Source of the DNA: a virus
DNA: 64,000 nt
IMG/VR virus record: IMGVR_UViG_3300003309_000010
Span: 20,391 to 84,390 of that record
Direction: 5' to 3' (one strand)
The translations under genes were made by a program, and so were the position numbers. The notes below the pieces were generated by a model, which was not told the DNA's origin, did not search any database, and saw only the letters and a list, made by a program, of their open reading frames with translations. Shown piece after piece: positions 15,749-59,750 of this stretch (position 1 is its first letter; each line of letters starts with the position of its first letter).

Positions 15749-16015
15749 ATGGTCCGAATTAAAATACAGTGTATTGAGCCAGCAGACGACAATAGTGTCT
15801 TTGCTGCATTGATGGCCGCTTACCACACCGACATGTCAGTTCATGAATTGTTGGATAAACTAACCAGTAATGATGTCTATAACCATATTGTTGGCCTTAA
15901 AATAGCGCTCGAAAAGATGGAATCGATGGACGCTGAAGCTAAAAACTTACTCATTAGGGAATTGGAAATGTCCGAAGATGGTTACTACTTAAGACTTAAG
16001 GAGAGAGAAAAATAA
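15749..16015 (+). CDS. Hypothetical protein
   Basis: AAGGAGG RBS places the start at 15749 rather than 15686. Confidence 0.65.
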   Translation: MVRIKIQCIEPADDNSVFAALMAAYHTDMSVHELLDKLTSNDVYNHIVGLKIALEKMESMDAEAKNLLIRELEMSEDGYYLRLKEREK

Positions 16016-16392
16016 TGCATCTACTAGTCCTATTAACCGACATAGACACCGACACCATCGAAAACACGCTACTGTCGTTTGCATCTGTAATCAAACCCTT
16101 ACCTGAAGATGTACCGTATTGTCTTGATGCGTTTTGTCTGACGGTGTTAAATCAAGCGGTGTTAGACATGGAAGGGTGTCTAAAAATGGCGACTGAAGAT
16201 ACCTTAACAGCGCCTTGCGGAACCAGTACCGTGGATATTAGACAGTTGGCAATCGACATTTGGCAGTCCGCTCAACGCAAAAGACTGCCAAATAGTTATG
16301 AAATTAAGGTTCTGCTATCGCCTCAACCCATGATAGCTTTACAATACAACACGGAGACTTTCCATGGTTACTACACCCGAACACGGCGATAG
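16015..16392 (+). CDS. Hypothetical protein
   Basis: TAATG coupling to the previous gene. Confidence 0.65.
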   Translation: MHLLVLLTDIDTDTIENTLLSFASVIKPLPEDVPYCLDAFCLTVLNQAVLDMEGCLKMATEDTLTAPCGTSTVDIRQLAIDIWQSAQRKRLPNSYEIKVLLSPQPMIALQYNTETFHGYYTRTRR

Positions 16393-30447: not shown

Positions 30448-32073
30448 ATGGAACCGTCCAGTATCCCGTTCAATATTCAGCTAATGCCTAATCATAGAGG
30501 TGTTACCGAACACCTCAAACCTATCACTGCTCCCGCTTTCTATGACGGTGTCAGCACTAAATTTCACAAAGAAGGATTGTTTTCCACCGAGATATTTGGA
30601 TCGGTCAGTGATAAACGCCGCACCCAAACGTTTGCCTACATTGATCTCAACACAGAAATCATTCATCCTATTCTATACAAAAATATAGAAAAGGTGGCGG
30701 GGTTTTATACAGAGATAATGAGTAGCAAAAGCTACGCGGTTTGGGATGCAAAAATAAAACAGTTTGTTCCCTCTAACGCGGTCGATGGGCAAACAGGTTA
30801 TGCGTTCTTCATGAAACATTTCAAAGAAATTGATTTCGTTCGAAATGATTCTCCAAGACGCACGACTCGAATAGACGTACTGGAGCGGTATCGAGACACT
30901 GCCGTCTACGATTATTTGCTGGTTATCCCCGCTGGACTGCGGGACGCTGAAGAAGGCAAAAACGGCAATCTCACCATGGACGAGATAAACGATTACTACC
31001 GCTCTGTGTTGACTCTCGCCGCTAATATTGAAAAGGGTGATTCGGATAACGTATTCAATGACTCTACTCGCTTACTCATTCAGCGTAATTTTAACGCGAT
31101 ATATGACATTTTGTTTTCGTATTTGCGAGGTAAAGGTGGCGGGCTTCAAGGCAAGTTCTTTAAACGTAAGTTGGAACACGGTACGCGAGGTGTAATGACC
31201 GCTGCCGAGCATAACATGGAGGATATGCGTGGCCCACAACGTTTAGGTATCCATGACGTAGCCTTAGGGTTACATCAGTCACTTAAAGCAACTGTTCCAC
31301 TCGTTGTTAACGCATTCAATAGTTCTGTATTGGTTAGAGACGGATTTTCTGTCGATGGGCAGGTACAAGTCATCAACCCGAAAACCAATGTGGTGGAAGA
31401 GCGTAAAGTATCCCCTAAAGACAAGGAATTGTTCACCGCTGAAGATGGAGTGAATACGCTAATCAACCGATTTGAAAAGCGTAATTTCAGACGACGCGAA
31501 GTCAAGATATCAGGCGGTTACCTCGCCATGGTCTATGTCAACGAGTCTGAGGGTACGTTTAAAATTGTACGAGACCCACAAACCGTACCAGAAGATTTTA
31601 AAGCACAGCTCAGACCCATTACGTACGCCGAACTGTTTTACTATCTTGTTGCTCCGGTTATCCAAGGATTACCCACTTGGGTGACTCGTTATCCGGTAAC
31701 TGGTGATGGCTCTACCACGCCCAACGCTTTGTATCTTAAGACAACAGATAAAGGGTTACCTCTTAAAGAGTTGGGGGACGATTGGCAACCAGTTTACATG
31801 GATGGCGACAGGTATATCTATAAAGAATGGCCTTTGGTGGAACTGGACTTCTTTGAGACAGTGGCAGTGCATCCTAACAAATTGGCCGATATGGGCGGCG
31901 ACCATGACGGAGATACCAGCAGTGCGGATGTCTCGATGACAGATGAAGCCATCGAGGAAGGCAAGGCTTACATGAGCGATGTTAGTCGTATGTTTAAGGA
32001 TGGTAACCCGCGTGCTATCTTTAGTACAGATATTGCAAAATGGACGTGCGCTGCAATGACTAACCCACCGTAA
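30448..32073 (+). CDS. Virion RNA polymerase beta' N-terminal/catalytic subunit (phiKZ gp180-like)
   Basis: IPFNIQL, EGLFSTEIFG, GTRGVMT, catalytic GGDHDGD (DxDGD). Confidence 0.9.
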   Translation: MEPSSIPFNIQLMPNHRGVTEHLKPITAPAFYDGVSTKFHKEGLFSTEIFGSVSDKRRTQTFAYIDLNTEIIHPILYKNIEKVAGFYTEIMSSKSYAVWDAKIKQFVPSNAVDGQTGYAFFMKHFKEIDFVRNDSPRRTTRIDVLERYRDTAVYDYLLVIPAGLRDAEEGKNGNLTMDEINDYYRSVLTLAANIEKGDSDNVFNDSTRLLIQRNFNAIYDILFSYLRGKGGGLQGKFFKRKLEHGTRGVMTAAEHNMEDMRGPQRLGIHDVALGLHQSLKATVPLVVNAFNSSVLVRDGFSVDGQVQVINPKTNVVEERKVSPKDKELFTAEDGVNTLINRFEKRNFRRREVKISGGYLAMVYVNESEGTFKIVRDPQTVPEDFKAQLRPITYAELFYYLVAPVIQGLPTWVTRYPVTGDGSTTPNALYLKTTDKGLPLKELGDDWQPVYMDGDRYIYKEWPLVELDFFETVAVHPNKLADMGGDHDGDTSSADVSMTDEAIEEGKAYMSDVSRMFKDGNPRAIFSTDIAKWTCAAMTNPP

Positions 32074-32094: not shown

Positions 32095-32122
32095 AATTAG
32101 GGCACTTAATAGTGCCCTAATT
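32095..32122 (+). terminator. Terminator hairpin followed by TTTTATG
   Basis: AATTAGGGCACT-taat-AGTGCCCTAATT. Confidence 0.8.
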
Positions 32123-32167
32123 TTATGCGACAACTAGAAAGATAAATATGATACACAGGAGAACCCA

Positions 32168-32782
32168 ATGTCAAATTTACCAGAATTAAATGTTCCTATG
32201 CCGACTGAGTTAGCTATTAAAGTAGTACTCAGCGATGATGAAAAAGCCATTGTCAACCAAGCTGACATCTACCACGCCTTGCTGCCTCATTTATCAACAC
32301 CTGCTCTTAAGTACCTGCCATCGACGAATCATTTCATCTCCGATGACATGGCGTTTACGCTGGCCGCTGATATGATACAGTTGGACAAAGCTAAGCAGGA
32401 TGGAAATCTAACATCCGATCGCGTGTACAACATCGCTGCTTTTTGCCTGAACATTTCGTTGAGCGGTCGACGTAATTTTCCGAATAAGTACGGCCCCACT
32501 AAAGACAGCGACGATATCCGTAAAGGACTCGTTAAAGATGTTCTGCGTTACCGGATGCAACCGCAAGCTGTGGAATTGGCATTAAAAGAAGATTATCAAC
32601 TACGCGGTTTCAGGGGCATGCTTGCCTTTGCCGAGGAGATTGGTAACAGAGAAGGTTTACCTAAAGAGTGGGTAGATAGCGAAATGAACATGCTAATGTT
32701 GTTCATTGCTCTGGCGTTCTATGAGGATAGAATCAAAGGGTTGGTTGATCGCTTTGTCGGCGACAATGTAGAAGGAGAATAG
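32168..32782 (+). CDS. Alpha-helical paralog family member A1
   Basis: ISDDMAF...GRRNFPNKY motif; AGGAG RBS. Confidence 0.75.
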   Translation: MSNLPELNVPMPTELAIKVVLSDDEKAIVNQADIYHALLPHLSTPALKYLPSTNHFISDDMAFTLAADMIQLDKAKQDGNLTSDRVYNIAAFCLNISLSGRRNFPNKYGPTKDSDDIRKGLVKDVLRYRMQPQAVELALKEDYQLRGFRGMLAFAEEIGNREGLPKEWVDSEMNMLMLFIALAFYEDRIKGLVDRFVGDNVEGE

Positions 32783-32783
32783 T

Positions 32784-33491
32784 ATGTCAATATTTATCGA
32801 TACTGCCGGTGACGGTACAGTGCCCTTTGAAGTGAGAACACCACGAACTGTCCAGACAACCGATGTGGACGGTAACCCTCAATCTGAAATCGTGTACGAT
32901 CCGTTCGACGTAGAGACAGTGGCGGTTTCTGTAACGTACGCTCCTGACGGTGTGACTATTACCAACAAAGATGCGATTTACACTTTACTGCAACAACATT
33001 TAGCAAAAACGTTAAACCAGTTCGTATTAACGGTCGACAACGCCATCACGGATGAAGCGGCATTGGAACTCGCTGCCGACTTCAGCACACGCGATGTGGA
33101 TAATTACGCTAACAAAAAAGACCAACTGGACTACATCTACCATGTGTATATGTTGTGTTTCTATATGATGGTAGCATCCAGGAATTTATCTCCAGAACAG
33201 TACAGTGCTGGTCCGACCCCGCCGGGTAAGTTGATCGACGATACGTTGTTGTACGGATATCGATTGGACTGGACATTGTCGGAGTTTCGAGAAGGGTACG
33301 ATCTCACTATGCCTATATCTATACGTTCTGAGATGGTAGCTCGCGGCCAGCTCGGTAACTACCCCGCAGACTGGATAGACGTATGTAGTAACACCGTTAA
33401 CTTGTTAATCGTTTCCGCTTACTACGCGGAAATGCTCAGCACTAGGATAAACGAACATCTCGACTATCCTTTTGTGTTCACCGTTTCATAA
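32784..33491 (+). CDS. Alpha-helical paralog family member A2
   Basis: ITDEAAL...SRNLSPEQY; aligns by eye with A1. Confidence 0.75.
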   Translation: MSIFIDTAGDGTVPFEVRTPRTVQTTDVDGNPQSEIVYDPFDVETVAVSVTYAPDGVTITNKDAIYTLLQQHLAKTLNQFVLTVDNAITDEAALELAADFSTRDVDNYANKKDQLDYIYHVYMLCFYMMVASRNLSPEQYSAGPTPPGKLIDDTLLYGYRLDWTLSEFREGYDLTMPISIRSEMVARGQLGNYPADWIDVCSNTVNLLIVSAYYAEMLSTRINEHLDYPFVFTVS

Positions 33492-33499
33492 ATTAAAAC

Positions 33500-33526
33500 A
33501 GGGGTAGGACAACCTACCCCTATTTT
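33500..33526 (+). terminator. Terminator hairpin followed by TTTTATG
   Basis: AGGGGTAGG-acaa-CCTACCCCT (same stem as after phuZ). Confidence 0.8.
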
Positions 33527-33565
33527 ATGTCCGCGTTACTTACATGACGCTATCAGGAGAAACAA

Positions 33566-34402
33566 ATGAAGACCGTAGAAGAACTTTTAACCTCTCTGGA
33601 TGAACGTTTAGGTTCCATGGGTAAACTCATCAATTCCAAAATTCAGCATCCTAGATGGACCAACACACGTGTACCGTCTCAGGGCGAGAACGCTGTCCAT
33701 GAATTTATGTCAAAGTTTTCGTATTTTTACTTATTCCGTAAAGATGAGCGTGTAGGTAGTTTGAGAGATACTGCAATAGCCAAATACCTCTACTGCGATA
33801 CAGATTCAGAGGAATTGCAAATTAAAATACGTAAGTTTCATGATACATCAGGTATCAGAGTCGCTACTACCGACGCTCCCGAAAGAATCCGGTTAAAGAG
33901 AATTGTTATTCGGGTATTTATGGAATCCGACTATTTTGACGACTCAATAGACGAACAAGAATTCTTAGCGTTCGCAGACCGTTACGTCGGTGGCATGATC
34001 GTATACCAAAAATTTGACAGATGTATATTCCTTGATGGATTAGAAGCCTGTTTCGTTTTCATGCTGCATTTCGACGCTATTCGTCATGTCGTATACCAAC
34101 ATCTGGGTAGAGGTTGGTACTCAGAATATCTACTGTATTGGGATAAAGTAAACTATGTCTTGGACTGTCAGTATACAGAGGAAAAGGATAAATATCTCTA
34201 CAGAACGACATACGACATTGGTGGTGTGAATTGTAGCAGCGCTGATAGCCCTAAATGCCGATCATTAGCATATGGATATCGTTGTAACGACGATCCCAGT
34301 AAAGAGCTAATACCGCTCACAAATCAGAAATATCCAGACCCAAGATATTACCCCCAACAGTATAGCTCGAGGGTACCTATATCCCAACCAGTGCGAAGAT
34401 AA
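33566..34402 (+). CDS. Hypothetical protein, probable family member A3
   Basis: SIDEQEFLAFADRY...ACFVFML; AGGAG RBS. Confidence 0.65.
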   Translation: MKTVEELLTSLDERLGSMGKLINSKIQHPRWTNTRVPSQGENAVHEFMSKFSYFYLFRKDERVGSLRDTAIAKYLYCDTDSEELQIKIRKFHDTSGIRVATTDAPERIRLKRIVIRVFMESDYFDDSIDEQEFLAFADRYVGGMIVYQKFDRCIFLDGLEACFVFMLHFDAIRHVVYQHLGRGWYSEYLLYWDKVNYVLDCQYTEEKDKYLYRTTYDIGGVNCSSADSPKCRSLAYGYRCNDDPSKELIPLTNQKYPDPRYYPQQYSSRVPISQPVRR

Positions 34403-34444
34403 ACATCCTTGATGTTTAATGACTAAACTTAAAGACGAGGTTTT

Positions 34445-35344
34445 ATGAAAAATCAATTACTCGAAGACTTAATCGAATTGTACGATCCAGATTTCACTCC
34501 ACCGGATGGCTGGGGTGATGCACCCATTAACCCACCTGTAGAGTTAGCTATGGGTATTTTCACGCTAAATGATAATCCGTTCAAATGTTCTATTCAACAC
34601 TCTCCCTCCGAAGAGCACAAAGACGGATACAACGAGGACGCTGTTCGGTATGCATTCCAGACGGCATTGGATAGAGGAATGCTAACGCAGGTAATCACTT
34701 CGTTGAGATCGATTAGTCTGGACTTATCCGATGCAGATTCCGACATCTTTGTGGATAACCCCCTGCTTGCAAAATCGTATCAAGATACAGACAGCGAAGA
34801 AACGCGTACGCATATACGCGCTGCGCGGATGGAGTTGTTTATCAAAATGTTAGCTGTCGATATACCTTCCCCAGAGTACGCCAGTTACACGGGAAATCTT
34901 TACATTTCTGATAGAGTTGTTCTGGAAATGGCTGAGGAGTTTGTAATGTGGTTGGCGGCGACAGGGTACGGTGGGGCTAACCTTGCCCGTTCGTTGTGGG
35001 CGAGAACCATAGCGTTGGCTACCATGTCGAGATTAAACCACCCTAACAAGTACGAGGTAGATTCAGGCTGCACGATGGGTAACAGTACCCAGTGGGAGCA
35101 CCATACGTTCTTTTCCAGAGAGCAACTTATCGACTATCTGTTAGGGGGTGATTTGAGCCAAGAGTTGCTAACAGCTTACGGCCCGTCAACGGTTATGTTT
35201 CTCGTAGAGGCGCTGACAGCTTTAGCCGAGGAACTCGACGTCAATCTGGAAATTGTGGAGCTTAGAAAGATTGTCTTATCTAACACATTGATGTGCGGAG
35301 CGCATGCGTGGCGATGTCGGGAGGCTGTCTCTATCTATTCATGA
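34445..35344 (+). CDS. Alpha-helical paralog family member A4
   Basis: ISDRVVLEMA...SRLNHPNKY. Confidence 0.75.
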   Translation: MKNQLLEDLIELYDPDFTPPDGWGDAPINPPVELAMGIFTLNDNPFKCSIQHSPSEEHKDGYNEDAVRYAFQTALDRGMLTQVITSLRSISLDLSDADSDIFVDNPLLAKSYQDTDSEETRTHIRAARMELFIKMLAVDIPSPEYASYTGNLYISDRVVLEMAEEFVMWLAATGYGGANLARSLWARTIALATMSRLNHPNKYEVDSGCTMGNSTQWEHHTFFSREQLIDYLLGGDLSQELLTAYGPSTVMFLVEALTALAEELDVNLEIVELRKIVLSNTLMCGAHAWRCREAVSIYS

Positions 35345-35353
35345 TACGATAAG

Positions 35354-35381
35354 ATTGGGCTGGGTTACGATCCAGCCCAAT
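35354..35381 (+). terminator. Hairpin whose right arm begins the duplicated cassette
   Basis: ATTGGGCTGG-gttacgat-CCAGCCCAAT. Confidence 0.7.
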
Positions 35382-35457
35382 TAACGGCGATATTATGGCG
35401 GGGATAACCAGCATTATTAAAACAATTAACCCATACCCGTAAGGAGTTTATTATGAA
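35367..35457 (+). repeat. Direct repeat copy 1 (promoter/RBS cassette)
   Basis: 62 nt identical to 55786-55847, then a 7-nt insertion, then 22 nt identical to 55848-55869. Confidence 0.95.
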
Positions 35458-36031
35458 TACTATACAAACCGCCGCAGACAGCTTGCTTCGTAACTGTGCT
35501 ACTCTTACCTCTCAACAGGAGTACGACGCTCTCGTTGCAGGGTTGGACTACCACAGCCCAGAACAGGTTAAAGAAGCGTTTGAGAAATCCCTCGTCGATA
35601 CAACAGCGTTGCCACAACCTGCACCATTCTGTATGGCACTATCATTATCGGCATACTTAAGATTCACTGCACGCCATGATTTGGCAACTATGGATCAAGT
35701 ACCTTTTGAAAAACCGCCCGCAGAGTTGATTGAACTTCTGGTAGATTTAAACCTTGACCATTTTAAATCAGTAGTCGGTAACCAAACATTGATGGTCAGT
35801 CAGGAAGCGATGGACGCCGTGGCTAAATTTAAACACGCTATCGATCAATGTAACCCCGCCTCATTTGAGGACAATAATCTGGCCAATACGTTCGATTACA
35901 TGATTGCGGAGTTGGAACGATTTGACGTGGATAACATTCGAGAACGCATGTTGGTGTTGTCGTCTTTCGTTACCGCAGAATACTACATTGATGTGTTTAG
36001 ACCGCTGATGGGCGATGTTGTTCAACATTAA
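35453..36031 (+). CDS. Alpha-helical paralog family member A5 (closest to B3)
   Basis: HSPEQVK...MALSLSAY versus HTPEEII...LAFSLIAV. Confidence 0.75.
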   Translation: MNTIQTAADSLLRNCATLTSQQEYDALVAGLDYHSPEQVKEAFEKSLVDTTALPQPAPFCMALSLSAYLRFTARHDLATMDQVPFEKPPAELIELLVDLNLDHFKSVVGNQTLMVSQEAMDAVAKFKHAIDQCNPASFEDNNLANTFDYMIAELERFDVDNIRERMLVLSSFVTAEYYIDVFRPLMGDVVQH

Positions 36032-36045
36032 TAAGGAGAACAGTC

Positions 36046-36201
36046 ATGACTGAAGATAACTATCGTCTCAGAGATGAAGATCCGCTCATTCTCTGTTTAA
36101 TGTTCGGCGCCATCGCATGTCTCGTAGGCGGCGCTTATGTTACAATTTTGCATTTAATTGCGCTAGGATATTTCCTAGCAGACTTAATGCAGTGTGTCTA
36201 G
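36046..36201 (+). CDS. 51-aa membrane microprotein
   Basis: AAGGAG RBS; MTEDNYRLRDEDPLILCLMFGAIACLVGG...; below the ORF-track cutoff. Confidence 0.65.
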   Translation: MTEDNYRLRDEDPLILCLMFGAIACLVGGAYVTILHLIALGYFLADLMQCV

Positions 36202-36210
36202 GATTCTACT

Positions 36211-36891
36211 ATGAACAAAAAAGAATATCTACGAGATCCTGATGAGGAGCGTTGGGGTATGAGAAGCATACGCAACTATCCTGTTACAGTGTCGATAGGC
36301 GTTAACGCGGGAAAATTTGAACTCGTCAATCTTGACGCTATTGTATCTAATCTTTGCATGTATATCGATGAACAAGATGATCAATTGTCACGAATGGATA
36401 TCTTGAAACTAACACTTGTTGCTGAGGGTGTAGTAGAAGATAGCAAGGTGTTGGATATAATTCGTTGTGTGTTGGAGACACGCAAACAGAAAGGTAGTCG
36501 AGTATGGCTACCGCCGTTTCGTAGAGTCGTAGAGTTCTGCTGTGCGATACTTCACGGACTAAGAGTGCAGTATCCTGATCAGTATCCGGTGAGCGATGAT
36601 GTCAAAGTGTTAGCCGAAGAAGCGCTGCAACTAATTACGAAAAAATACTACTCGCGACTGGGTTCGGGCGTAGAACCAGAAAGTGTTTATTACGACGCAC
36701 TTACGGACAAAATGCAGGAGCTTGATTGTTTATCAGCGTTGAGTTTGATACTGGACAAACAAGATCAAACTACTAGCAGGTTTCCCAATTTGGACACAGA
36801 AGACTTCATGGCTTACGCTTACGAACAAGCGTACAAAAGTCTAACGGAACCAGAAAGTTTGGGATTTCCAGACATCGTCCGTAAAGTATAA
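36211..36891 (+). CDS. Alpha-helical paralog family member A6
   Basis: VEDSKVL...LRVQYPDQY. Confidence 0.75.
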   Translation: MNKKEYLRDPDEERWGMRSIRNYPVTVSIGVNAGKFELVNLDAIVSNLCMYIDEQDDQLSRMDILKLTLVAEGVVEDSKVLDIIRCVLETRKQKGSRVWLPPFRRVVEFCCAILHGLRVQYPDQYPVSDDVKVLAEEALQLITKKYYSRLGSGVEPESVYYDALTDKMQELDCLSALSLILDKQDQTTSRFPNLDTEDFMAYAYEQAYKSLTEPESLGFPDIVRKV

Positions 36892-36916
36892 CATTCAACA
36901 AAGTAAGGAGTTTGTT

Positions 36917-37306
36917 ATGGAAACAAACAAATGCACTAAATTCAAACGGTTTGACGAGTTAACTATCGAAGGTTTACCGGTAAAAGATTTTCATCATCAC
37001 GGAACCACCGGTGAAGGACACTACCGTTTATATGTCCACGTCAGAGATGACGACGGCTTTTTAGCCTCGGCGGTGAGATTTGTTAAGTCCGATGGCGTCG
37101 GGGATGGAGACACACTTTGGGATGGTGATAATCTCATCGTCGATGAGGTGTTTCAGGTGTTTGCTGGAAAAGACGGTATACAGAAAATACCGGTTGGCGT
37201 ACACAATTCCAAATTGCCGGGGTGTTTCACTTACCCGCATATAGACGAGTTAATTCAACTTCTACAGGAAGTTGAGAAACTCGAAAAAGAACACAGCATC
37301 TGGTAA
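36917..37306 (+). CDS. Hypothetical phage protein
   Basis: AAGGAG RBS. Confidence 0.7.
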   Translation: METNKCTKFKRFDELTIEGLPVKDFHHHGTTGEGHYRLYVHVRDDDGFLASAVRFVKSDGVGDGDTLWDGDNLIVDEVFQVFAGKDGIQKIPVGVHNSKLPGCFTYPHIDELIQLLQEVEKLEKEHSIW

Positions 37307-37337
37307 CAACAATACAACTATATTCTTGGAGAAGAAC

Positions 37338-39110
37338 ATGACCGAACAACAAACTGCATCACGTTATTCCGAACCTAGCGCGTTATTTAACGAGTCGGAT
37401 GACAAAAACATTTTGCCTATTATGCACGATGCTCCGCCCTGGGCGCTCTATTCTCAGGATGTGGAAACCCTGCAAGTTATTATCCCACTAGATAGTGTGG
37501 ACAGGGAGCAGGTAATTATCACTTTTGGTCCTTGGGCTAAAATGACAGCACAGCTTAACACTAAACACATGCAGGACGAAGGTATCCTCTGTGAAGTGTT
37601 GTTGCTTAACTGGGTCCAACGTCAGGAAGCGATGCATTTAGCATCGATGGTCAAAAGCTTACGGGCGGATTTTGAAGACCAGTTGAAAGACGAAGGGGTA
37701 GACATCACTAATATCGGGGTGATAACTGAACTGGGACTGGCATTGCTTGACTTAAATGATTCAAGGCATCCTCCGGAAGAACGCGAGGACATACATGGTT
37801 ATCTACATCGTGCAGCGGTTTTGAAGGAATCTGATGGTAGTATTGATTCTCAGAATCAACAGCCCAAAAGAGTCTGGGTAAAGCATCCCGACTCAATGGT
37901 CGCAGATGACGATGATGAATTGGATGCTAAAGATGCTTCGATAGACATTGAAAACATCAGCGCTGTACAAGCCAGAGTGAGCGAATTGTCATCGCTACAT
38001 AAAACCGTTGTCCCTGACAAATACCTCACCATGATGGGTGACCTCAACTACCCCAACGATGCGGAGGTGCTAACGGCTGTCGGTAATCTGTTAGACGGGT
38101 TGTCAAAGGATTCTGAAAAGTTCGCTGAACACCGCGAGAACTATATGGTGGCGGCATTGACATGTATTACGGTCAATCGGTTGACTTTTAATACCGTCGT
38201 TTCGGAGTTGGATGAAACTCTGTACAACGGGTTGGAACTCACCGGCGACGATCCGGTAACTTCAGAATCGGTAGCGTTGTGGATCCATTCATACTTCACC
38301 CATCAAGGTGTTGACACGACGCATGTCGAACAAACGCCGTTGTGGCGAATTGCTATGGGTATCTTCATGCGCGTTTTGGAAGACTACCCCAAACCCACCG
38401 ACGATGTTGCCGATTGTTGGGTGAACGGTTTCGTTGCGTTAACCAACAACTTGGCGTGGTTTGAGAAGTATGGTGCTGAAAGTTACTATACTGAAGAAAC
38501 ACCAAAAGAGTTCGGTGAGGAGTTCTACTCAGCTCTGGAAGCGCAAGTCGTAGAATGTCTCTCCGCAGACAATACGCCGTCTTTCGAAACATGCGCGGTC
38601 TCGGCATTAGAAGAACTCAATGGTGAACATGGTACGCAAAGTCTGGAGTCTCTACCTATTAACTATAGCATCTTAGGCATGGTGGTTCGTAATGTAGCAG
38701 AAGCCTTGGATACCAGCGGTGTCGGATACAGAAAAGCGTTGCTTTCATTAGTCGACTTCTATCTCGATGGTCTTGTACCTCGCACCGAGTGTACGATTTT
38801 AATAGCAGGAGATACCACATCGTGGACACCTAGAGTTATCGATGCATTACGCGAATCAACAGACGACGGTGATGAAAAAATAACCGAAGAAGTCGCTAAC
38901 AAATTGTGTTTGTTAGCGGACGAAAACCGTCACGTTACTAAGCGTGATTGGGTTCATTCTTTCATTCACAACAAACTGCGTCAACATTATAACGATTGGC
39001 ACCCCAGAGCCTCTACGCATCAGCTAACGATTGGTTTCAGTAATTTCCTACAGCACAACGAAGTGTTGAAAGGATTCTGTGCCAATTATGGTCTTGAGGA
39101 ACTATGTTAA
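37338..39110 (+). CDS. Large acidic helical protein containing a family-like domain (A7)
   Basis: PNDAEVL...VNRLTF; GGAG RBS places the start at 37338. Confidence 0.65.
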   Translation: MTEQQTASRYSEPSALFNESDDKNILPIMHDAPPWALYSQDVETLQVIIPLDSVDREQVIITFGPWAKMTAQLNTKHMQDEGILCEVLLLNWVQRQEAMHLASMVKSLRADFEDQLKDEGVDITNIGVITELGLALLDLNDSRHPPEEREDIHGYLHRAAVLKESDGSIDSQNQQPKRVWVKHPDSMVADDDDELDAKDASIDIENISAVQARVSELSSLHKTVVPDKYLTMMGDLNYPNDAEVLTAVGNLLDGLSKDSEKFAEHRENYMVAALTCITVNRLTFNTVVSELDETLYNGLELTGDDPVTSESVALWIHSYFTHQGVDTTHVEQTPLWRIAMGIFMRVLEDYPKPTDDVADCWVNGFVALTNNLAWFEKYGAESYYTEETPKEFGEEFYSALEAQVVECLSADNTPSFETCAVSALEELNGEHGTQSLESLPINYSILGMVVRNVAEALDTSGVGYRKALLSLVDFYLDGLVPRTECTILIAGDTTSWTPRVIDALRESTDDGDEKITEEVANKLCLLADENRHVTKRDWVHSFIHNKLRQHYNDWHPRASTHQLTIGFSNFLQHNEVLKGFCANYGLEELC

Positions 39111-39803: not shown

Positions 39804-40622
39804 ATGTCACGTATTAACAGCTTAATTAGATCGCTTTCTACTTTCGGAGAAACGCCTTATGGGACATACTGTCCCGAGACGCAAGAAATCCGATTAGTGA
39901 TGCCACGACGTAAACCCCACGACTCGTTCACGTTCATCATCCCTCGGGGTGATATGTTTTACTACGAGAAAAAGATACTGTTGCCTGAAGGAGACTATCA
40001 GTATCTTCAACTCTCGGGTGAAGAAATCAGTGGTGTTTATGCGGCGGTGCTTGCAGTAACGAAGTTTGTTTCACAATCTGAATATCTGAGTATACTGGGT
40101 GCGCTCTACCCAACAGGCCCGTTGGGTGCGCTTATCCCGGTATCCAGTTTGTCCCATGACCTCAGGATGATGCTGTGGAATACATGGAAAAAGACAACTG
40201 AAGATGTTGCCGCGCTAACCAACTATTGTCTGCCACTTAATCGCCCAAACGTATGGTTGAACACACACAACAAGCGTGTGATGATAGAGCTGCGTTGCGA
40301 GTTTCTACCTGTCGTGCTACAGTTTGTGAATCAGGCTAACGGGTTCACAGTGACAGACGTGGAACTTTCCGATTTGGAAAAATCTGATAATTGGACGAAA
40401 GTTATGCTCGATCCGAACACTATCTTGGCCATTCGCGATTTACACATGCGGGTGGACAGATGGTACCGGACGACGTCCGATAAGGCTAAGCTTCACTATA
40501 ACGTAACCTTGCCCAATGAAGTATTGAAAATTATCAATGATTTTCAGGGCGACGGAAGTAAAATCATTACTGACTATAACTGCGAGTCTCCGGACTCGCA
40601 GTTACCGGCCGCAAATTCTTAA
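39804..40622 (+). CDS. GPLG paralog family member C1
   Basis: IRLV...FYYEK...GPLGAL...VWLN. Confidence 0.75.
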   Translation: MSRINSLIRSLSTFGETPYGTYCPETQEIRLVMPRRKPHDSFTFIIPRGDMFYYEKKILLPEGDYQYLQLSGEEISGVYAAVLAVTKFVSQSEYLSILGALYPTGPLGALIPVSSLSHDLRMMLWNTWKKTTEDVAALTNYCLPLNRPNVWLNTHNKRVMIELRCEFLPVVLQFVNQANGFTVTDVELSDLEKSDNWTKVMLDPNTILAIRDLHMRVDRWYRTTSDKAKLHYNVTLPNEVLKIINDFQGDGSKIITDYNCESPDSQLPAANS

Positions 40623-40633
40623 GGAGGCAATGT

Positions 40634-41401
40634 ATGATGGCGAATCGTATATTATCTTCAGCGGCGACAGTGTGTGATAATACTGCGTTATACTGGACAT
40701 CCAGTTTCCAATCGGAACAGATTAGACTGGTAATAAGCACCGTGCCGGAAACCATCACAGTCGTGATGACTCGGGGGTACCCTTTGTATTGTGAAAAAGG
40801 GATATCTGTACCGGTAGGGTTGAATGATAAAGAGGTGTTGGAAGGACAATTGCTCAAAGATGCCGAGAGATTAGGTCAAACCCTATCTCTGTTCTACACG
40901 GAAAATCATGAAAACATGATGGAAGAGAATGAAGGAGTGGATACGTATGGGCCTCTAGGGCCCATATTTAATACCGCTGCTTTATCTCCCGCGTTAGTAG
41001 AGAAACTCGACATGCTTTGGGCTGGCAACGCCAGTAACTACTTAACGTCCTGTTGTGTCAGGGCGGGTAAGTACAGACCGAGAATCTGGAAGGATAAAGT
41101 TAACGGACGTATTGCGATTTCGATGAATTATCATCTGCATCCTCGCACGTTAATGATCGGTCGTTCTGGTAAGTTCGCCTTGTCGTTTGAACGATGGAAT
41201 CCGATATTCGCACGCGAGCCTAGCAATTGGGTATCGTGTGTGGTAACGGACACCGCAATGATAGACCTGTATGGTTTGGATAAACGTATCGCAGAGTGGG
41301 CAATCACCAACCCCAACGCGTCGGAACCGGGAATAAAGCATAGTATTATTACACTCCCGATGTCCATCCATGATTTAATAGAGGATACCATTGCCGAATA
41401 A
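40634..41401 (+). CDS. GPLG paralog family member C2
   Basis: IRLV...LYCEK...GPLGPI...IWKD. Confidence 0.75.
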   Translation: MMANRILSSAATVCDNTALYWTSSFQSEQIRLVISTVPETITVVMTRGYPLYCEKGISVPVGLNDKEVLEGQLLKDAERLGQTLSLFYTENHENMMEENEGVDTYGPLGPIFNTAALSPALVEKLDMLWAGNASNYLTSCCVRAGKYRPRIWKDKVNGRIAISMNYHLHPRTLMIGRSGKFALSFERWNPIFAREPSNWVSCVVTDTAMIDLYGLDKRIAEWAITNPNASEPGIKHSIITLPMSIHDLIEDTIAE

Positions 41402-41433
41402 ACACTCCTTACGCCTGCCTTTTGGGCGACTTA

Positions 41434-41458
41434 GAGGGACGAAAGTCCCTCCTTTTTT
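41434..41458 (+). terminator. Rho-independent terminator
   Basis: GAGGGAC-gaaa-GTCCCTC then CTTTTTT. Confidence 0.8.
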
Positions 41459-41527
41459 ATTTATAACATCCCATAGCGGTTGAAGATACAACAGATTCAA
41501 CTGTTATAATACAAGAGGTAACATACC

Positions 41528-42271
41528 ATGATTAATGCGATATATAGTCCTGCGAGATACCCTGATGAAGGCGATTACAACTGGACCAGAATTGTCTTAG
41601 ACTCTCCACTAGGAGTCCAGACGTTAATCACTGCGGTTAATGAACCCGTTTGGTTTGAGCGTGGCGAAGTCGTTCCGACTACTCGCGGTAAAAGAAACAG
41701 TAGACCACTGACTGAACTTGAAATGGTGGAGGCCAAGAAAGCCATTGATTATATCATTCGTGATAAAGGATCACCTAATATAGATCCCTCCATTGGACAT
41801 CATGGGTATGGTCCGTTAGGTGCGATTATGGACCACAAAGCTTTACCTCCACATCTACAACTGGCGGTAAAGGAGTACCACCAGCACATGTATGATTCCA
41901 AAGCGATGTACCAGCAGGTGATTAACAAACCGGATGCGTTTAAAGTCTGGTATCGCCCTACTTCGAAGTGGTTTTATATGAGCTTTGAGTGTAACCTCAA
42001 ACCCGTCTCCATCTTCATCACACCGTACAACAAATTCATTGTCCGCCCTGACGCGTGGGATCCTTCCATCGCGCACGATCCGGAGGAATATCTACGTGTC
42101 GATATGGGTGACGAATATAACGGTGATCTCTATGAATTTAATAAACGGTTATCCGGTTGGTTTTGGACTAACCAATTGATTGATTTCATGGGAGAAGGGG
42201 CTACACATTCAACCGCTACGATTCCGAAATCTGTACGGGAAAGACTAGGGGAAATTCAAGACGGATACTAA
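41528..42271 (+). CDS. GPLG paralog family member C3
   Basis: TRIV...VWFER...GPLGAI...VWYR. Confidence 0.75.
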   Translation: MINAIYSPARYPDEGDYNWTRIVLDSPLGVQTLITAVNEPVWFERGEVVPTTRGKRNSRPLTELEMVEAKKAIDYIIRDKGSPNIDPSIGHHGYGPLGAIMDHKALPPHLQLAVKEYHQHMYDSKAMYQQVINKPDAFKVWYRPTSKWFYMSFECNLKPVSIFITPYNKFIVRPDAWDPSIAHDPEEYLRVDMGDEYNGDLYEFNKRLSGWFWTNQLIDFMGEGATHSTATIPKSVRERLGEIQDGY

Positions 42272-53409: not shown

Positions 53410-53487
53410 GATACACCTCTTCAAATAGCTGTGTTTACGACATAACATTTATCCAAATTAGTGTAACACAAATCAAAGGAGCATTCG

Positions 53488-54570: not shown

Positions 54571-54586
54571 CTCAAGGAACACCACT

Positions 54587-55786
54587 ATGACTCAAGAAGA
54601 TATTTTATTGAAAAATGTTGACGCTTTAACCAGCGTTGTCCTCAACATGTCCGCAAACGATCCCGATCATCACGAATGGCGAATCCGCACACTGGAACGA
54701 ATAGTTGCCGACTTCCCTACAATGGAAGATTGGCAGATTATTGCGTACATGAAAACCGTTGCGACGAACTGTGCTAAACTTTCCTACATTGACGCTGGAC
54801 CAAGCTTATCTACGGTTACGTTGTATATTGTAGCGACGATGTATCTGCGTCATGAAATGTCCACAATGGATAGCATCGATCCGCTTCCAGAAACCCTACA
54901 GATTAATCTCAATAAGAAAGATGAGAATATCGACGAAGCGTTGACGATCGGTCACATTAAAGCGCAACAACTTTTCGCTTCAGGGTTCGATGTGGGTGAA
55001 GTGCGGACGTACTTGAAGAATAACACCGACTTTGTTGGAGATGCTTTGCAGACTCGTGTAGAACACTTACTCTGGGCATATTTGAAAGTCACGTTAGAAG
55101 ATGAACTACACGAAGTAACCAAGATTCATGTTAAACTTTCTCAGCGCTGGTTCGCGACCGATAAGTTCGAAGAGGTGTTAGTAGAGACACTTTCTAACCC
55201 TCACGATGAAAGTGATCCGCTGAGATACGTTTCTCGGTTATTTTACCTCGTACCCATCGACCATATCCCTCACGCAATCTACCGCGCCTTACTGAGAGTC
55301 GATATGGATAAGTTCGCCCCTAACGTTAGTATTAGAGATCTACTGACGTTCGTGAGCGACGCTATACGCCAAAGGGTCAGAGCCGACAGCGTGATCGCTA
55401 ATAAACCGTATTCCGATATGATACCCGATCTCGGTTATTTGATTGATCCGCTTAACCACGATGACTGGTTTGACGCTCCTGGTCTCGCCGCTGCGTGTCA
55501 ACTTGCAGTGGAAAAAGATAATGTTGTACTACCTGACCTGTGGGCAGTTAAAGAGTACATTCATACGGAGTTGTTAAACAGTGAAGGGTTTCGAAAAGCA
55601 GAAGAGCGTACGCACATCGCTTTGGATATACTGATTAGCGTGTTATGTCAATCAATTTATCGGGATATAGTAGCTATTACTGATAAGTGGAAACCTGCGC
55701 AGTTGGGTCCAAAGTCGGAGCGCGTTGCTGCACGTATCCGCTGGAACACCGAATACCTCTCGGGAGTACCCGCCGAAACTAAGTAA
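54587..55786 (+). CDS. Alpha-helical paralog family member B2
   Basis: FPTMEDWQII...YLRHEM. Confidence 0.7.
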   Translation: MTQEDILLKNVDALTSVVLNMSANDPDHHEWRIRTLERIVADFPTMEDWQIIAYMKTVATNCAKLSYIDAGPSLSTVTLYIVATMYLRHEMSTMDSIDPLPETLQINLNKKDENIDEALTIGHIKAQQLFASGFDVGEVRTYLKNNTDFVGDALQTRVEHLLWAYLKVTLEDELHEVTKIHVKLSQRWFATDKFEEVLVETLSNPHDESDPLRYVSRLFYLVPIDHIPHAIYRALLRVDMDKFAPNVSIRDLLTFVSDAIRQRVRADSVIANKPYSDMIPDLGYLIDPLNHDDWFDAPGLAAACQLAVEKDNVVLPDLWAVKEYIHTELLNSEGFRKAEERTHIALDILISVLCQSIYRDIVAITDKWKPAQLGPKSERVAARIRWNTEYLSGVPAETK

Positions 55787-55869
55787 CGATCCAGCCCAAT
55801 TAACGGCGATATTATGGCGGGGATAACCAGCATTATTAAAACAATTACCCGTAAGGAGTTTATTATGAA
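55786..55869 (+). repeat. Direct repeat copy 2 (promoter/RBS cassette, half terminator)
   Basis: Identical to 35367-35457 except for a 7-nt indel. Confidence 0.95.
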
Positions 55870-56755
55870 AATCACCACGTATACTGATTTGAGCAGTTTA
55901 GTGACTGACGTGTTAGCGGATGAGTCGAGACAACGTTTCCATTTGACTCAACCACTACGTGAACTTCCCCGTCATACCCCTGAAGAGATTATCCGCATCG
56001 TGATGGATCATCCCGGTTTCTATCCGGAAGAGTCGAGATCCATACCGAAGTTGGAACAACAAATTTCATTAGCATTCTCGCTGATAGCGGTGTCCGAATA
56101 CCTCGGAGCAATGGATATTAAGAATAACGAATTTGTCAATGTGGCTGCACCAGAAGGATTTGTAGACGCTGTCATGAACGTTAGTAGTAAAGTTTTCTAC
56201 GGTTTTGATAGTTTAATTTACAACCAAGCCGAAATTGCTCAGGTCTTTAAAATTATCCGAGAAAATGTAGACGCGTTCAATCCCCACAATCTCCAATACA
56301 TTTACGAATCTATTTTCAATAGAGCCGTGCGTATTGAACTGAAACATGCGGAGGCTCGCTGTATGTTGGTGGCTTTATTAGTCACGATGGTCAACCACAG
56401 CCATCTGTTCGATGCTTTGTTGACAGATTTACGTATATTGCGTGAAGAGCAGGAAGCGTTGAGGGCGTTAGCATTAAATACGGACTTCGTTGAACAGTTG
56501 AGTGCGATGACTTTAACTGAAAACCAAGCAGAGATTTTGGAAAACATTAAGGACGGGCACAATACCAAGGCTATACTAATGACCTTGCATCATAGGAATA
56601 CGCAGAGGGTTGGTAGAGATTTAAATGCGTTGGTTACAAAGGGGTATATTAGGCTGGATAATCCCCCACCGGCGACCTCTAAAGAGAACACAGCCTATAT
56701 AGTGGCTACAGTACCTCAATTGAAAAATCATTTCCTAACCACCATTGCCGATTAA
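55865..56755 (+). CDS. Alpha-helical paralog family member B3
   Basis: AAGGAG RBS sets the start at 55865; LPRHTPEEII motif. Confidence 0.75.
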   Translation: MKITTYTDLSSLVTDVLADESRQRFHLTQPLRELPRHTPEEIIRIVMDHPGFYPEESRSIPKLEQQISLAFSLIAVSEYLGAMDIKNNEFVNVAAPEGFVDAVMNVSSKVFYGFDSLIYNQAEIAQVFKIIRENVDAFNPHNLQYIYESIFNRAVRIELKHAEARCMLVALLVTMVNHSHLFDALLTDLRILREEQEALRALALNTDFVEQLSAMTLTENQAEILENIKDGHNTKAILMTLHHRNTQRVGRDLNALVTKGYIRLDNPPPATSKENTAYIVATVPQLKNHFLTTIAD

Positions 56756-56783
56756 CACCAACTAGTTTGTATGGAGTTTCACC

Positions 56784-57320
56784 ATGACTAAAATTAATAA
56801 CACATTTGTCATCAACGCCGCATCAGCATTACAATTCGATGAACCTGACGGTTCAGCGTTAGACACAATCGTCGATACACTTCCCTATAACGACGACGTC
56901 ACAATGTTGGCATTCTTTGATGCTGTCATTAAGGAACTGAATACCCGACCACACCGTTGTAGTGCGGATAATTTCAACATTTTCGCAATTGGCGCACTTG
57001 CTGCACAGCGTCGACGCTTCCCCGACAAGTTTGATGTCAAATCTTTAAAGACATCGATACCCGGGAAATTGCTGAAGACGCTTAAAGCAGAAAGTATCAA
57101 AAACGAAACCATTCTTCGTACTTTAAGAAAGCATCGCGAATTACTCAACATCGATTCTGTTGTGAGTGTGACTGCCAAAGTGTATCAAGAATTGGTCGGC
57201 TCTATTGGTCCCGAAGCTGCGTCGTTCCGGTCTCGGTTTGTTATGTCGTTGGTGTTGTCGGAACACTACTACGCCAAAATAGTGGACATGACACTCGCGT
57301 TGGGAGACCGCCATGATTGA
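56784..57320 (+). CDS. Alpha-helical paralog family member B4
   Basis: LPYNDDVTML...QRRRFPDKF. Confidence 0.8.
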   Translation: MTKINNTFVINAASALQFDEPDGSALDTIVDTLPYNDDVTMLAFFDAVIKELNTRPHRCSADNFNIFAIGALAAQRRRFPDKFDVKSLKTSIPGKLLKTLKAESIKNETILRTLRKHRELLNIDSVVSVTAKVYQELVGSIGPEAASFRSRFVMSLVLSEHYYAKIVDMTLALGDRHD

Positions 57321-57864
57321 TACCATTGAGCAAAAATGGATTAGTAAGGCCGACCGCATTTTGCGGTTCGGTCCTTATACAGAACTCAGAGACGACTGCG
57401 TTGAACTGATAAATGAGTTACCGTACATGGATGATGATACGGTTTTCGTGTATTTACAAAAGATCGTCGACCGACTATTGGGTAGTGGGGAGACTTCCTG
57501 CACATCTTCTGTTCTGGGAGAGTTCGGCGTAGGGGTCTTGTCAGGGATGCGTGTTAGATTCAGTGGCGAATTTGATTTATCGCCCAGTAACGGCGATGTC
57601 CCGCCAGACCTGTTGGCTACGGCGTTGAAACGACACGATCGCGGAGACCAATTGTTTGAATGGCTTAACCTCAATCAGGACTACTGTAACCTTGATTGTT
57701 TGGTTAGCTTCCATCGACATTTGGTTGCAGAGCTCATTCAGATTATGGGACCGGAAAGAGCTTACCGTTGGGGTCGAAAATACATCAGTTATGCGTTAGC
57801 GATATCCCACCGTCATCGTTTACAGAGTTTAACTAAACAGTTGAAGGAGGAATCTCATGTCTAA
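57313..57864 (+). CDS. Alpha-helical paralog family member B5
   Basis: LPYMDDDTVF...MRVRFSGEF. Confidence 0.8.
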   Translation: MIDTIEQKWISKADRILRFGPYTELRDDCVELINELPYMDDDTVFVYLQKIVDRLLGSGETSCTSSVLGEFGVGVLSGMRVRFSGEFDLSPSNGDVPPDLLATALKRHDRGDQLFEWLNLNQDYCNLDCLVSFHRHLVAELIQIMGPERAYRWGRKYISYALAISHRHRLQSLTKQLKEESHV

Positions 57865-58486
57865 TGGGAATTTACAACCTTATATAGATAAGTTGATATC
57901 GTTCGCGACGTCTCCGAATTACAAGACTAACTATCTAAATAAGGACGAATGGGATAAGCTACTCTCCGAGTCCCCGGTGATGACAGATCGAGACATTATA
58001 GACGCTGTAGAAGCAGCGTCTATGTCTATCGAAATTGATTATTGGGACGTGCTTTTAGATAACACGCTGAAACAGTCTTGCTTGCTTGAAGAACTTGCAC
58101 TTAAATTAATGCAGCATCAAAGACGCGCTAATCCGTCCCAGTTCCCAGATGACATTTTTGGATCTGAACTCGTCGGCGTTAACTTGAATTTAGTGTTTGC
58201 GGTTGCCAAGGCAAAGTGCCGTAAGCCTCGCACTTTGACGGAACTGCATAATGCAATTTACGATGACTTTTATTTCAAACACGTAACGTTGGATAACATG
58301 AAAAGCTTTTTTCAACAGTTAACCGAACACGCCGTGGGTCACAGCAGTATCGTATTTGCGGAAGAGATTACTCAAGCCATTTCGGTTGTAGAAAGACGTT
58401 TTCTACGGCGAGTTTACCGGCAAGACCTAAACAAACTGTTCACCTACTACGTTGTTGAATTAGCAGGTGACGAATCTGAGGAATAA
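57857..58486 (+). CDS. Alpha-helical paralog family member B6
   Basis: SPVMTDRDII...QRRANPSQF. Confidence 0.8.
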   Translation: MSNGNLQPYIDKLISFATSPNYKTNYLNKDEWDKLLSESPVMTDRDIIDAVEAASMSIEIDYWDVLLDNTLKQSCLLEELALKLMQHQRRANPSQFPDDIFGSELVGVNLNLVFAVAKAKCRKPRTLTELHNAIYDDFYFKHVTLDNMKSFFQQLTEHAVGHSSIVFAEEITQAISVVERRFLRRVYRQDLNKLFTYYVVELAGDESEE

Positions 58487-58489
58487 ACC

Positions 58490-59128
58490 ATGACAGACAC
58501 ATTAGAAAAACTTAACCTTGTGGCGGAGCTCGACGTGTTGGGTAAAGCTCTTAAAGATAAAATCGTCGACCACATTAATGACGAATCCCCACACGACAAG
58601 GACGCAATAAAGCGTCTTATTCATTTGTTCCCGCCAATGCTCGATTACAAAGTGCTGATTATCATCTATGCAGCGGCTAAGGAAGTTGACTTCAAACCCG
58701 AAGATGCTATAAACACTAAAGTGCCGCATCAGCTCAAACGATTGCGTGACTTGGCGCTGGAAGTGATGATGCATTTGCGTCGAGTGTCACCGCAGGATTA
58801 CAATCTTCTCCCTTACAAAGATGAAGTGTCTCCCGCACTGGTTGACATCATGTCTGCGGGTAGCGTAATATCGGAAGTCAAACTTTACCTATCGGTGGTT
58901 CAAGAGTACGATCAATATCTCGACAGAGTTACGTTGCGTAATCTGGAACACTTCCGGATAAAACTGATAGACAGAGTTATCTCTCGCGGGACTCGTACGC
59001 CAGAGGGTGCGATGTACTTAACCGACGCGGTTGAAAAGCGGCTCTTGAAAAAGTTCCACTCTGACGCGTTAGAAGCTGTGCTGAAACCGGTAGCCGATAA
59101 ATTTGAAGCTGCCAAGTCCGAGGGTTAG
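58490..59128 (+). CDS. Alpha-helical paralog family member B7
   Basis: FPPMLDYKVL...LRRVSPQDY. Confidence 0.8.
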   Translation: MTDTLEKLNLVAELDVLGKALKDKIVDHINDESPHDKDAIKRLIHLFPPMLDYKVLIIIYAAAKEVDFKPEDAINTKVPHQLKRLRDLALEVMMHLRRVSPQDYNLLPYKDEVSPALVDIMSAGSVISEVKLYLSVVQEYDQYLDRVTLRNLEHFRIKLIDRVISRGTRTPEGAMYLTDAVEKRLLKKFHSDALEAVLKPVADKFEAAKSEG

Positions 59129-59142: not shown

Positions 59143-59174
59143 AAAGTTAAGTTAATGTCGACTTAACTTTTTTG
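59143..59174 (+). terminator. Rho-independent terminator
   Basis: AAAGTTAAGT...ACTTAACTTT then a T-tract. Confidence 0.65.
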
Positions 59175-59750
59175 ATGGGAATGGGTAGTATGTTTACAAA
59201 TCACGAAGAGAAAGTCGCTTCGGCTGTTGATTTATTATTATCTGACGTCTCTATATACCGGACAGTTGTAGACGAACTCTTGGTTGATGTGAAATACTTG
59301 ACCGATAACGAAGTATTCGAATATTGTACATTGGTGATAGATAGGATGATGCGAATAATAAAGAAGTGTCGGTATAACACCGGGGATCGAGTAGAGAAGT
59401 TTATTATCTATTGTCTTATCCATCAACGGTATAAGAAAGGGTACCTTGCTGACATTAACGTTGGTTTAGGTGATATACCTTACCACGGTATATCACCGTT
59501 GTTGGATGTTAAGGTGGACATCCAAAAGATGCAAGAAAAAATGCAATGTAAGCGGTATAGCCGTCTATTGACACTAAGTATTGAACCACGATTTATTGGT
59601 CAATTGCGATATGTGTTATCTGGTTTGGTCACGCACGGTAGCCCCGATATAAGAGCTAACCTATTTATGTTTTTAGGGTTCAGGTTACATTTTAAACAAC
59701 GGTTAGACGCTCTCGCTGTCAACCTCATACTAGCGTCACAAAATCGATAG
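59172..59750 (+). CDS. Alpha-helical paralog family member B8
   Basis: YLTDNEVF...HQRYKKGY; start uncertain (maybe 59190). Confidence 0.7.
   Translation: MMGMGSMFTNHEEKVASAVDLLLSDVSIYRTVVDELLVDVKYLTDNEVFEYCTLVIDRMMRIIKKCRYNTGDRVEKFIIYCLIHQRYKKGYLADINVGLGDIPYHGISPLLDVKVDIQKMQEKMQCKRYSRLLTLSIEPRFIGQLRYVLSGLVTHGSPDIRANLFMFLGFRLHFKQRLDALAVNLILASQNR

Follow-up and report, generated by a model that had tools for sequence, protein, structure and literature searches.

Paralogous head-protein families, some of whose products are injected, are known from phiKZ-like phages (bioRxiv 10.1101/2025.11.23.690004). The phiKZ proteins Imp2 and Imp4 are small, restricted to their lineage and without an assigned fold class, and they serve single cargos (bioRxiv 10.1101/2024.03.27.586873); Bacillus phage G carries a roughly 35-copy zinc-ribbon family of small proteins (PMC7824862). 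Here we describe a family of diverged paralogs encoded in two gene arrays, A and B, on a 64,000-nucleotide (nt) stretch of viral DNA (positions 20,391 to 84,390 of IMG/VR record IMGVR_UViG_3300003309_000010). This whole stretch is hereafter the window; positions are those of the window and open reading frames (ORFs) are named by their first position. Nine ORFs are firm members, four in array A and five in array B, and the total rises to as many as twelve if the half-length ORF 16015 and the weak candidates 53488 and 54587 are counted. An earlier reading of the letters alone (the sequence-only reading) had put the figure at about 15; what it observed is confirmed in part, and its interpretation is supported in part. 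The family is new, whilst the phenomenon to which it belongs, the lineage-specific expansion of paralogs in jumbo phages, is already known.

The phage and its two genomic slots

The window belongs to a viral contig of 111 kb and 132 ORFs, which derives from an uncultured phiKZ-like, chimallin-encoding (nucleus-forming) jumbo phage; the chimallin gene is at 62147-64060. The DNA is present in a single sequencing run only, a coral metagenome, and no RNA data set was listed as containing it. Among named phages Halocynthia phage JM-2012 is the closest, its RNA polymerase beta protein being 48% identical; the 141.8-kb contig L014, from an uncultured relative, is much nearer, with core proteins 54–75% identical. 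The following core genes and virion gene can be recognised in the window:

18113-20191, minus strand: tail sheath
virion protein (a virion gene block lies at 20320)
26140-28275: large terminase
30448-32073: RNA polymerase beta subunit, with array A downstream
59847-62039: divergent family B DNA polymerase, with array B upstream

Array A (32168-39110) occupies the slot after the RNA polymerase beta gene, and array B (53488-59750) a slot bounded by a conserved minus-strand operon on one side and by the DNA polymerase gene on the other. Each comprises eight tightly packed ORFs, all on the plus strand. From 56784 to 59128 the genes of array B overlap or abut, an arrangement that fits one operon, and between 59172 and the DNA polymerase gene lies a strong hairpin. 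As delimited, the arrays take up 13.2 kb; the firm members themselves cover only ~5.8 kb, or 9% of the window, and not the fifth of it that the sequence-only reading had proposed for the family.

Membership of the family

The contig ORFs were scanned for the signature [ILMV]-x-D-x-x-[VIA]-[LF], followed 35–50 amino acids (aa) further on by R-x-x-x-P-x-x-[YF]. Both motifs with this spacing occur in 5/132 ORFs (32168, 32784, 34445, 36211 and 58490), all of which lie inside the arrays. Residue shuffles gave an expectation of 0.029, with a maximum of 1 in 1000 shuffles, so that the observed count is ~170 times the expected one. The second motif is also found without the first in 56784 and 57857, and in degenerate versions in 57313 and 59172.

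Within the proteome, pairwise BLAST and jackhmmer recovered small groups: {32168, 32784}, {56784, 57313, 59172} and {57857, 58490}. A hidden Markov model (HMM) built from the five array B proteins returned 16015, 36211, 54587, 32168 and 53488 as its best non-member ORFs (n=132; E 1e-4 to 0.02); thus an HMM made solely from array B reaches the array A ORFs 36211 (E 3e-4) and 32168 (E 9e-3). In leave-one-out profiles each of the nine candidates ranks 1–3 among non-members, and HHalign comparisons between the small groups are collinear through both motifs (E 0.004–0.04; probabilities <10%). Since profiles tie the small BLAST and jackhmmer groups together, we regard the single family as real. The members are as follows:

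32168..32782, plus strand: firm member, 204 aa, array A type (small beta element and two helical lobes); invariant D59 and R101; BLASTP to 32784 at E 4e-12
32784..33491, plus strand: firm member, 235 aa, with a beta-rich N-terminal extension
34445..35344, plus strand: firm member, 299 aa; family domain at about residues 150–298, behind a 140-aa acidic N-terminal extension; HHalign to the 32168/32784 pair at E 0.006 over 55 columns spanning both motifs; leave-one-out rank 2
36211..36891, plus strand: firm member, 226 aa; leave-one-out rank 1, E 1.3e-5
56784..57320, plus strand: firm member, 178 aa, all-helical with two lobes; invariant D38 and R76
57313..57864, plus strand: firm member, 183 aa; 8-nt overlap with 56784, to which BLASTP gives E 2e-15
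57857..58486, plus strand: firm member, 209 aa; 8-nt overlap with 57313; supported by BLAST, jackhmmer and leave-one-out profiles
58490..59128, plus strand: firm member, 212 aa; supported by BLAST, jackhmmer, the double motif and leave-one-out profiles
59172..59750, plus strand: firm member, 192 aa, basic (isoelectric point (pI) 9.0), with a degenerate second motif; linked by jackhmmer to 56784 and 57313
16015..16392, plus strand: half-length copy outside both arrays, 125 aa, N-terminal lobe with both motifs; array-B HMM E 1.2e-4 and the best HHalign score among non-member contig ORFs
53488..54570, plus strand: weak candidate and probable distant member, 360 aa, possibly with two domain copies within one protein; HHalign score 22.4 over 135 columns (background <=17), HMM E 0.02–0.06
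54587..55786, plus strand: weak candidate and possible distant member, 399 aa, first motif only; array-B HMM E 0.003 on residues 35–70, HHalign at background level; by eye, an Arg lies ~40 residues past the first-motif Asp

ORFs 33566, 35453, 36917, 37272, 39155 and 55814 rose above background in no jackhmmer, hmmsearch or HHalign comparison. The sequence-only reading had assigned the signature to seven genes of array A, an overcount, as four of the eight ORFs (32168, 32784, 34445 and 36211) qualify by signature or profile. For array B it had named eight genes; here five are firm and two (53488 and 54587) weak, whilst 55814, or 55865 from its probable start, does not belong. The proteins of array A are strongly acidic (pI 4.2–5.0) and the members in array B range from pI 5 to 9. 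Members have no long hydrophobic stretches, as judged by grand average of hydropathy (−0.3 to 0.04) together with inspection of the sequences.

An opposite explanation would be that there is no single family, the motifs being due to chance or composition and the relationships being confined to small unrelated paralog pairs. In its favour, jackhmmer within the proteome yields pairs and triplets only and the HHalign probabilities between groups stay below 10%. Against this, the cross-array HMM matches are significant in the 132-ORF search, the double motif far exceeds its expectation, the predicted models of both types share the same helix order, a combined profile finds outside homologues of both array types with E down to 1e-14, and one of these, P0011, joins 59172 to 56784. 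We therefore consider this explanation very improbable and largely refuted by the cross-array HMM, the database profile search and the comparison of models.

Predicted structure

AlphaFold2 modelled 32168, from a nine-sequence alignment, with a predicted local distance difference test (pLDDT) score of 78.9 and a predicted template modelling (TM) score of 0.76, and 56784, from an alignment of array-B-type sequences only, with scores of 92.0 and 0.87, respectively. The 56784 model is all-helical and its structure matches split between residues 1–84 and 86–175; we read it as a two-lobed protein. The model of 32168 has two short strands where 56784 has its first helix, and from the first-motif helix onward every helix coincides between the two. 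When mapped through the alignment, 141/169 residue pairs share the same secondary-structure state. The prediction of a diverged, mainly helical family common to both arrays is thus supported.

One Asp and one Arg are the sole invariant non-Met columns in alignments A1 and A2. The Asp begins one helix, within a first motif whose extended form is P-x-[ILM]-x-D-x-x-[VIA]-[LF]; the Arg stands close to where the next helix ends, 38–42 residues on, and is followed by a conserved Pro and then by the C-terminal helical lobe. By comparison, N-terminal extensions, the loop past the second motif and the surfaces vary widely among members.

Searches with one or both models using Foldseek (PDB, a viral library and AlphaFold DB clusters) and the ESM Atlas shape search gave no significant match. 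In the viral library neither model had anything at E <0.25, and the best 50 rows were non-significant and contained no phiKZ-like proteins. In the ESM Atlas, which has a model of 56784 of its own, no neighbour of that model exceeded TM 0.4, and all array ORFs gave nothing above noise in Pfam and PHROGs. The statement that these proteins belong to no named family therefore stands, there being no significant match in Pfam, PHROGs or the structure libraries.

Relatives, copy number and age

A nine-member profile was searched with HMMER against 1.84 billion protein representatives. Apart from the nine members it found only five other proteins (E 1e-14 to 1e-6), all of them from related uncultured phages and each pairing with one particular paralog:

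P0013: counterpart of 32168, 31% identity
P0012: counterpart of 32784, 47% identity, directly downstream of P0013 in L010/L011
P0010: counterpart of 56784, 42% identity, in the related locus L007
P0014: counterpart of 56784, 38% identity, in L014 before the DNA polymerase gene
P0011: counterpart of 59172, 46% identity, also linking 59172 to 56784

Moreover, megablast of array A and tblastn of 32168 against phage records gave no match, a word-indexed homologue search with 32168 and 37272 returned self-matches only, and scans of IMG/VR with the RNA polymerase beta and DNA polymerase proteins gave distant loci (34–36% identity) or none. Judged by these searches, the family is very narrowly distributed, with no detectable relatives beyond the phage's own small clade.

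In L014 the genes for terminase, acetyltransferase and RNA polymerase beta come in this order and are followed by genes of 114 and 206 aa and by one gene of the type found at 39804. After some small genes that are shared come the minus-strand pair, which is conserved, a gene of 70 aa, P0014, and the genes for DNA polymerase and chimallin. The 206-aa gene is a weak member (E 0.009), and L014 thus has one copy per slot, the weak member after RNA polymerase beta and P0014 before DNA polymerase. From this we conclude that both arrays are lineage-specific expansions in slots flanked by conserved genes. A third phage, available as short contigs only, has at least five members, in tandem pairs: P0013 and P0012 are succeeded by a counterpart of the 590-aa gene at the end of array A; P0010 comes directly after the minus-strand operon and has a further member (E 2e-10) behind it; and P0011 is preceded by a fragment of a member. 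Measured between their starts, the RNA polymerase beta and DNA polymerase genes are 29.4 kb apart in this phage, as against 8.7 kb in L014 and 7.5 kb in JM-2012.

The sequence-only reading had attributed the arrays to a gene accordion. Copy number is indeed expanded, with 1+1 in L014, at least five in the short-contig phage and 9–12 here, in a comparison that rests on distant relatives (core proteins 54–75% identical). As a recent amplification, however, the accordion fails: the paralogs are mutually only 10–25% identical at the protein level, branches of a maximum-likelihood tree exceed 1 substitution per site, with a median of 1.35 for the terminal ones, and single paralogs can be paired with counterparts in related phages at 31–47% identity. 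Most duplications are hence older than the split of these phages. In the same tree the array A and array B types are weakly separated. Between members we found no near-identical tandem copies or DNA repeats, the sole long repeat being a 68-nt leader before two non-member genes. Taken together, the sequence comparisons point to long-term gene birth and retention rather than a recent accordion.

Late-type signals and a possible role in the head

The heptamer TTTTATG occurs 7 times in intergenic positions upstream of plus-strand genes against 0.87 expected (~eight-fold), and none of 2000 shuffles reached 7. These sites lie at 20254, 26086, 32121, 33523 and 39129 and, in the rest of the contig, at −3251 and 89621 in window coordinates, usually directly after a hairpin. 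This is the case upstream of 32168, 33566 and 39155, and the motif is also found before the terminase gene and before the block of virion genes at 20320. Two features bear on array A:

32121..32127, plus strand: TTTTATG immediately behind a hairpin and 47 nt before 32168; candidate promoter element of the late TATG type
33500..33529, plus strand: hairpin of 9 paired bases and a T-run, ending in TTTTATG; terminator-like boundary upstream of 33566

The late-promoter consensus of phiKZ is TATG (PMC4666361; PMC7598289), which is contained in TTTTATG. We therefore regard TTTTATG as a candidate late promoter element of this phage; it hints that array A may be expressed late, although the motif is short. 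Array B contains no TTTTATG. A sigma-70 promoter scan was not above shuffles, and a search for the phiKZ middle-promoter-like pattern gave no useful pattern.

One alternative is that the members are internal proteins of the head, or proteins ejected from it, which would be produced late, packaged into the capsid and injected along with the phage DNA, like the internal-protein paralogs of phiKZ. As cited above, paralogous and partly injected head-protein families are known in phiKZ-like phages. Furthermore, array A follows the RNA polymerase beta gene within the structural and packaging region, its units are preceded by a hairpin and TTTTATG just as the terminase gene and the virion block at 20320 are, and its proteins are strongly acidic. 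However, no member matches PF12699, the Pfam profile of the phiKZ internal head proteins (C-terminal domain), or any PHROG head family. For PF12699 there was no match in the 16 array ORFs or in 16015 (hmmscan, E up to 0.1 or 1), and none in a six-frame search of the 111-kb contig (E up to 1). The [SAG]-x-E site, at which the prohead protease trims the N-terminal propeptide of the phiKZ proteins, is aligned in no more than three close relatives; the motif is short, and sequence by itself does not reveal cleavage. Array B sits with replication and nucleus genes, without TTTTATG, and in L014 an AT-rich GATATATAAT-type motif that looks like an early motif stands before each of the two slots. We consider a role in the head unlikely.

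The slot of array B and a possible role in import

In phiKZ the minus-strand gene gp42 is followed by gp43–gp49 and then by gp50, the DNA polymerase gene; in the window the corresponding order is 52951 (minus strand), 53488-59750 and the DNA polymerase gene at 59847. Array B thus lies in the same slot as phiKZ gp43–gp49, which holds the cargo-specific factors for nuclear import Imp2 (orf47, 178 aa) and Imp4 (orf48). A second alternative is that the members are import adaptors, each paralog licensing a different cargo for the phage nucleus, and Imp2 and Imp4 are likewise small, lineage-restricted proteins that act on single cargos. Position alone is weak evidence, however, and array A is in a different slot. 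A profile from six phages' Imp2 proteins matches no member (the best E in the contig is 0.57, for an unrelated ORF), HHalign puts the probability of a match between Imp2 and the family at 0.3%, and the family profile finds nothing in phiKZ gp40–gp67. We hold this alternative to be quite unlikely. In a variant that we rate as a little more doubtful still, the members would be expanded cargo-specific adaptors for nuclear entry that are independent of Imp2 and Imp4 and merely share their slot. If this were true, the slot would be a general cradle of import specificity in chimalliviruses.

A weak BLAST match (E 0.017) had put forward 53488 as a relative of Imp2; it was not reproduced by the Imp2 profile and this lead was rejected.

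Favoured explanation

This is a clade-specific multigene family whose copies arose through old tandem duplications in two accessory-gene slots. Their products are soluble, two-lobed proteins of ~180–230 aa, all-helical in the array B type and with an added small beta element in the array A type. We hypothesise that the members serve as non-enzymatic, partner-specific binding or adaptor modules, an explanation to which we give an even chance. Each paralog may be dedicated, during infection, to a partner of its own from phage or host, be it in host take-over, in counter-defence or in sorting proteins to the phage nucleus. The conserved motifs would then be scaffold (a helix cap and a helix end, possibly joined by a salt bridge) and not a catalytic site.

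The non-enzymatic part of this explanation is suggested by the fact that only one Asp and one Arg are invariant, that Pfam, PHROG and fold searches gave no enzyme match and that the proteins have no long hydrophobic stretches. The role as binders or adaptors is proposed because there is no enzyme-like feature, variable surfaces are carried on a conserved scaffold, copy number differs between phages and the genes occupy accessory slots.

Several points weigh against it. The binder or adaptor role leans on the lack of enzyme-like features and on a parallel with other multigene families of phages, and the invariant Asp/Arg pair could instead be part of an active or ligand-binding site. Searches for structural neighbours gave no informative match. 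The AlphaFold2 alignments are only 8–9 sequences deep, and that of 32168 took in array B sequences, such that the agreement of the two models is only partly independent. Lastly, half of the array A ORFs are without detectable kinship and the "array" is a mixed gene set.

Nucleus-forming jumbo phages hold many lineage-restricted genes, and this family is a clean case with a confident predicted structure and no significant match in the libraries that were searched. Related phages differ in its copy number, from 2 to at least 9, and both of its slots are flanked by conserved core genes. If the copies are partner-specific binders, they would show how such phages diversify host take-over or protein sorting; if not, they are one more phage expansion of uncharacterised genes.

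Other genes and signals in the region

The non-member genes within the arrays are:

33566..34402, plus strand: 278 aa with 7 Cys, no relatives found; poor ESM Atlas model (pLDDT 0.29)
35453..36031, plus strand: 192 aa, acidic (pI 4.45); poor ESM Atlas model (pLDDT 0.49)
36917..37306, plus strand: 129 aa
37338..39110, plus strand: 590 aa from the ATG at 37338 (public gene call)
55865..56755, plus strand: 296 aa from the ATG at 55865, behind a shared leader cassette

The TTG listed at 37272, which overlaps the previous gene, is probably too early as a start for the 37338 ORF. As listed (612 aa) the 37272 ORF is very acidic, with a net charge of about −53. A counterpart of the 590-aa protein lies, at 25–35% identity, directly downstream of P0012 in the related phage.

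The leader cassette is present in two copies:

35364-35431 and 55783-55850, plus strand: 68-nt leader, 97% identical, containing GCGATATTATGGCG and preceding non-members 35453 and 55865

The likeness runs on to the start codons of 35453 and 55865, with the same ribosome-binding site behind both copies. Copy A has a full hairpin upstream and copy B its 3′ half only. As the listed ATG at 55814 falls inside the repeated leader, 55865 is probably the true start. This leader is the only recent DNA-level event between the arrays. A similar element, CTATATTATGGCG, lies upstream of P0010 in the related locus L007. The C-terminal 90 residues of the 55865 protein match Pfam LexA_DNA_bind at E 0.0037, below the family cut-off, and look like a winged helix-turn-helix.

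In the 179-nt gap of array A, positions 36046-36201 form a 51-codon ORF that is absent from the ORF list; it has a strong ribosome-binding site (TAAGGAGA) and encodes a small, very hydrophobic peptide. Downstream of array A, 39804-42271 is a separate three-gene tandem family (272, 255 and 247 aa) with one copy in L014 (5232-6011, 33% identity), which adds a third lineage-specific expansion to those of the two arrays. Between 43286 and 51700, ~8 kb of genes are largely missing from L014, including ORFs of 777 and 484 aa without family match; the only L014 counterparts are those of the 43870 gene and a 120-aa gene that matches the start of 47830.

The motif TT(A/T)GTGTAACACAAA lies in the intergenic DNA from which the minus-strand operon and the first plus-strand gene diverge. 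It is kept in 3/3 phages (53449-53487 here, 9606-9744 in L014 and 300-470 in L007) and may be a shared promoter or operator.

Comparison with known systems

The internal head paralogs of phiKZ (PF12699; gp92–97, gp153, gp162 and gp163) are likewise a diverged tandem multigene family in a chimallivirus, and the late-type TATG motifs at array A recur at structural genes. In contrast to the phiKZ internal head proteins, the members described here are smaller, do not match PF12699 and share an aligned protease motif in no more than three close relatives, and half of them lie beside replication genes.

The gp43–gp49 block of phiKZ has the same layout as the surroundings of array B: a minus-strand gene, small plus-strand genes, the DNA polymerase gene and then the chimallin gene. 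Imp2 and 56784 are both 178 aa long, and both sets of proteins are small, lineage-restricted and of no known family. The members show no sequence or profile similarity to Imp2 and Imp4, and those of array A lie elsewhere.

Lastly, the zinc-ribbon family of Bacillus phage G is, like this one, an expanded set of small diverged proteins in a giant phage. It is a different protein family; the one described here has no metal-binding motif and is present in 9–12 copies, placed in two slots that are flanked by conserved genes.

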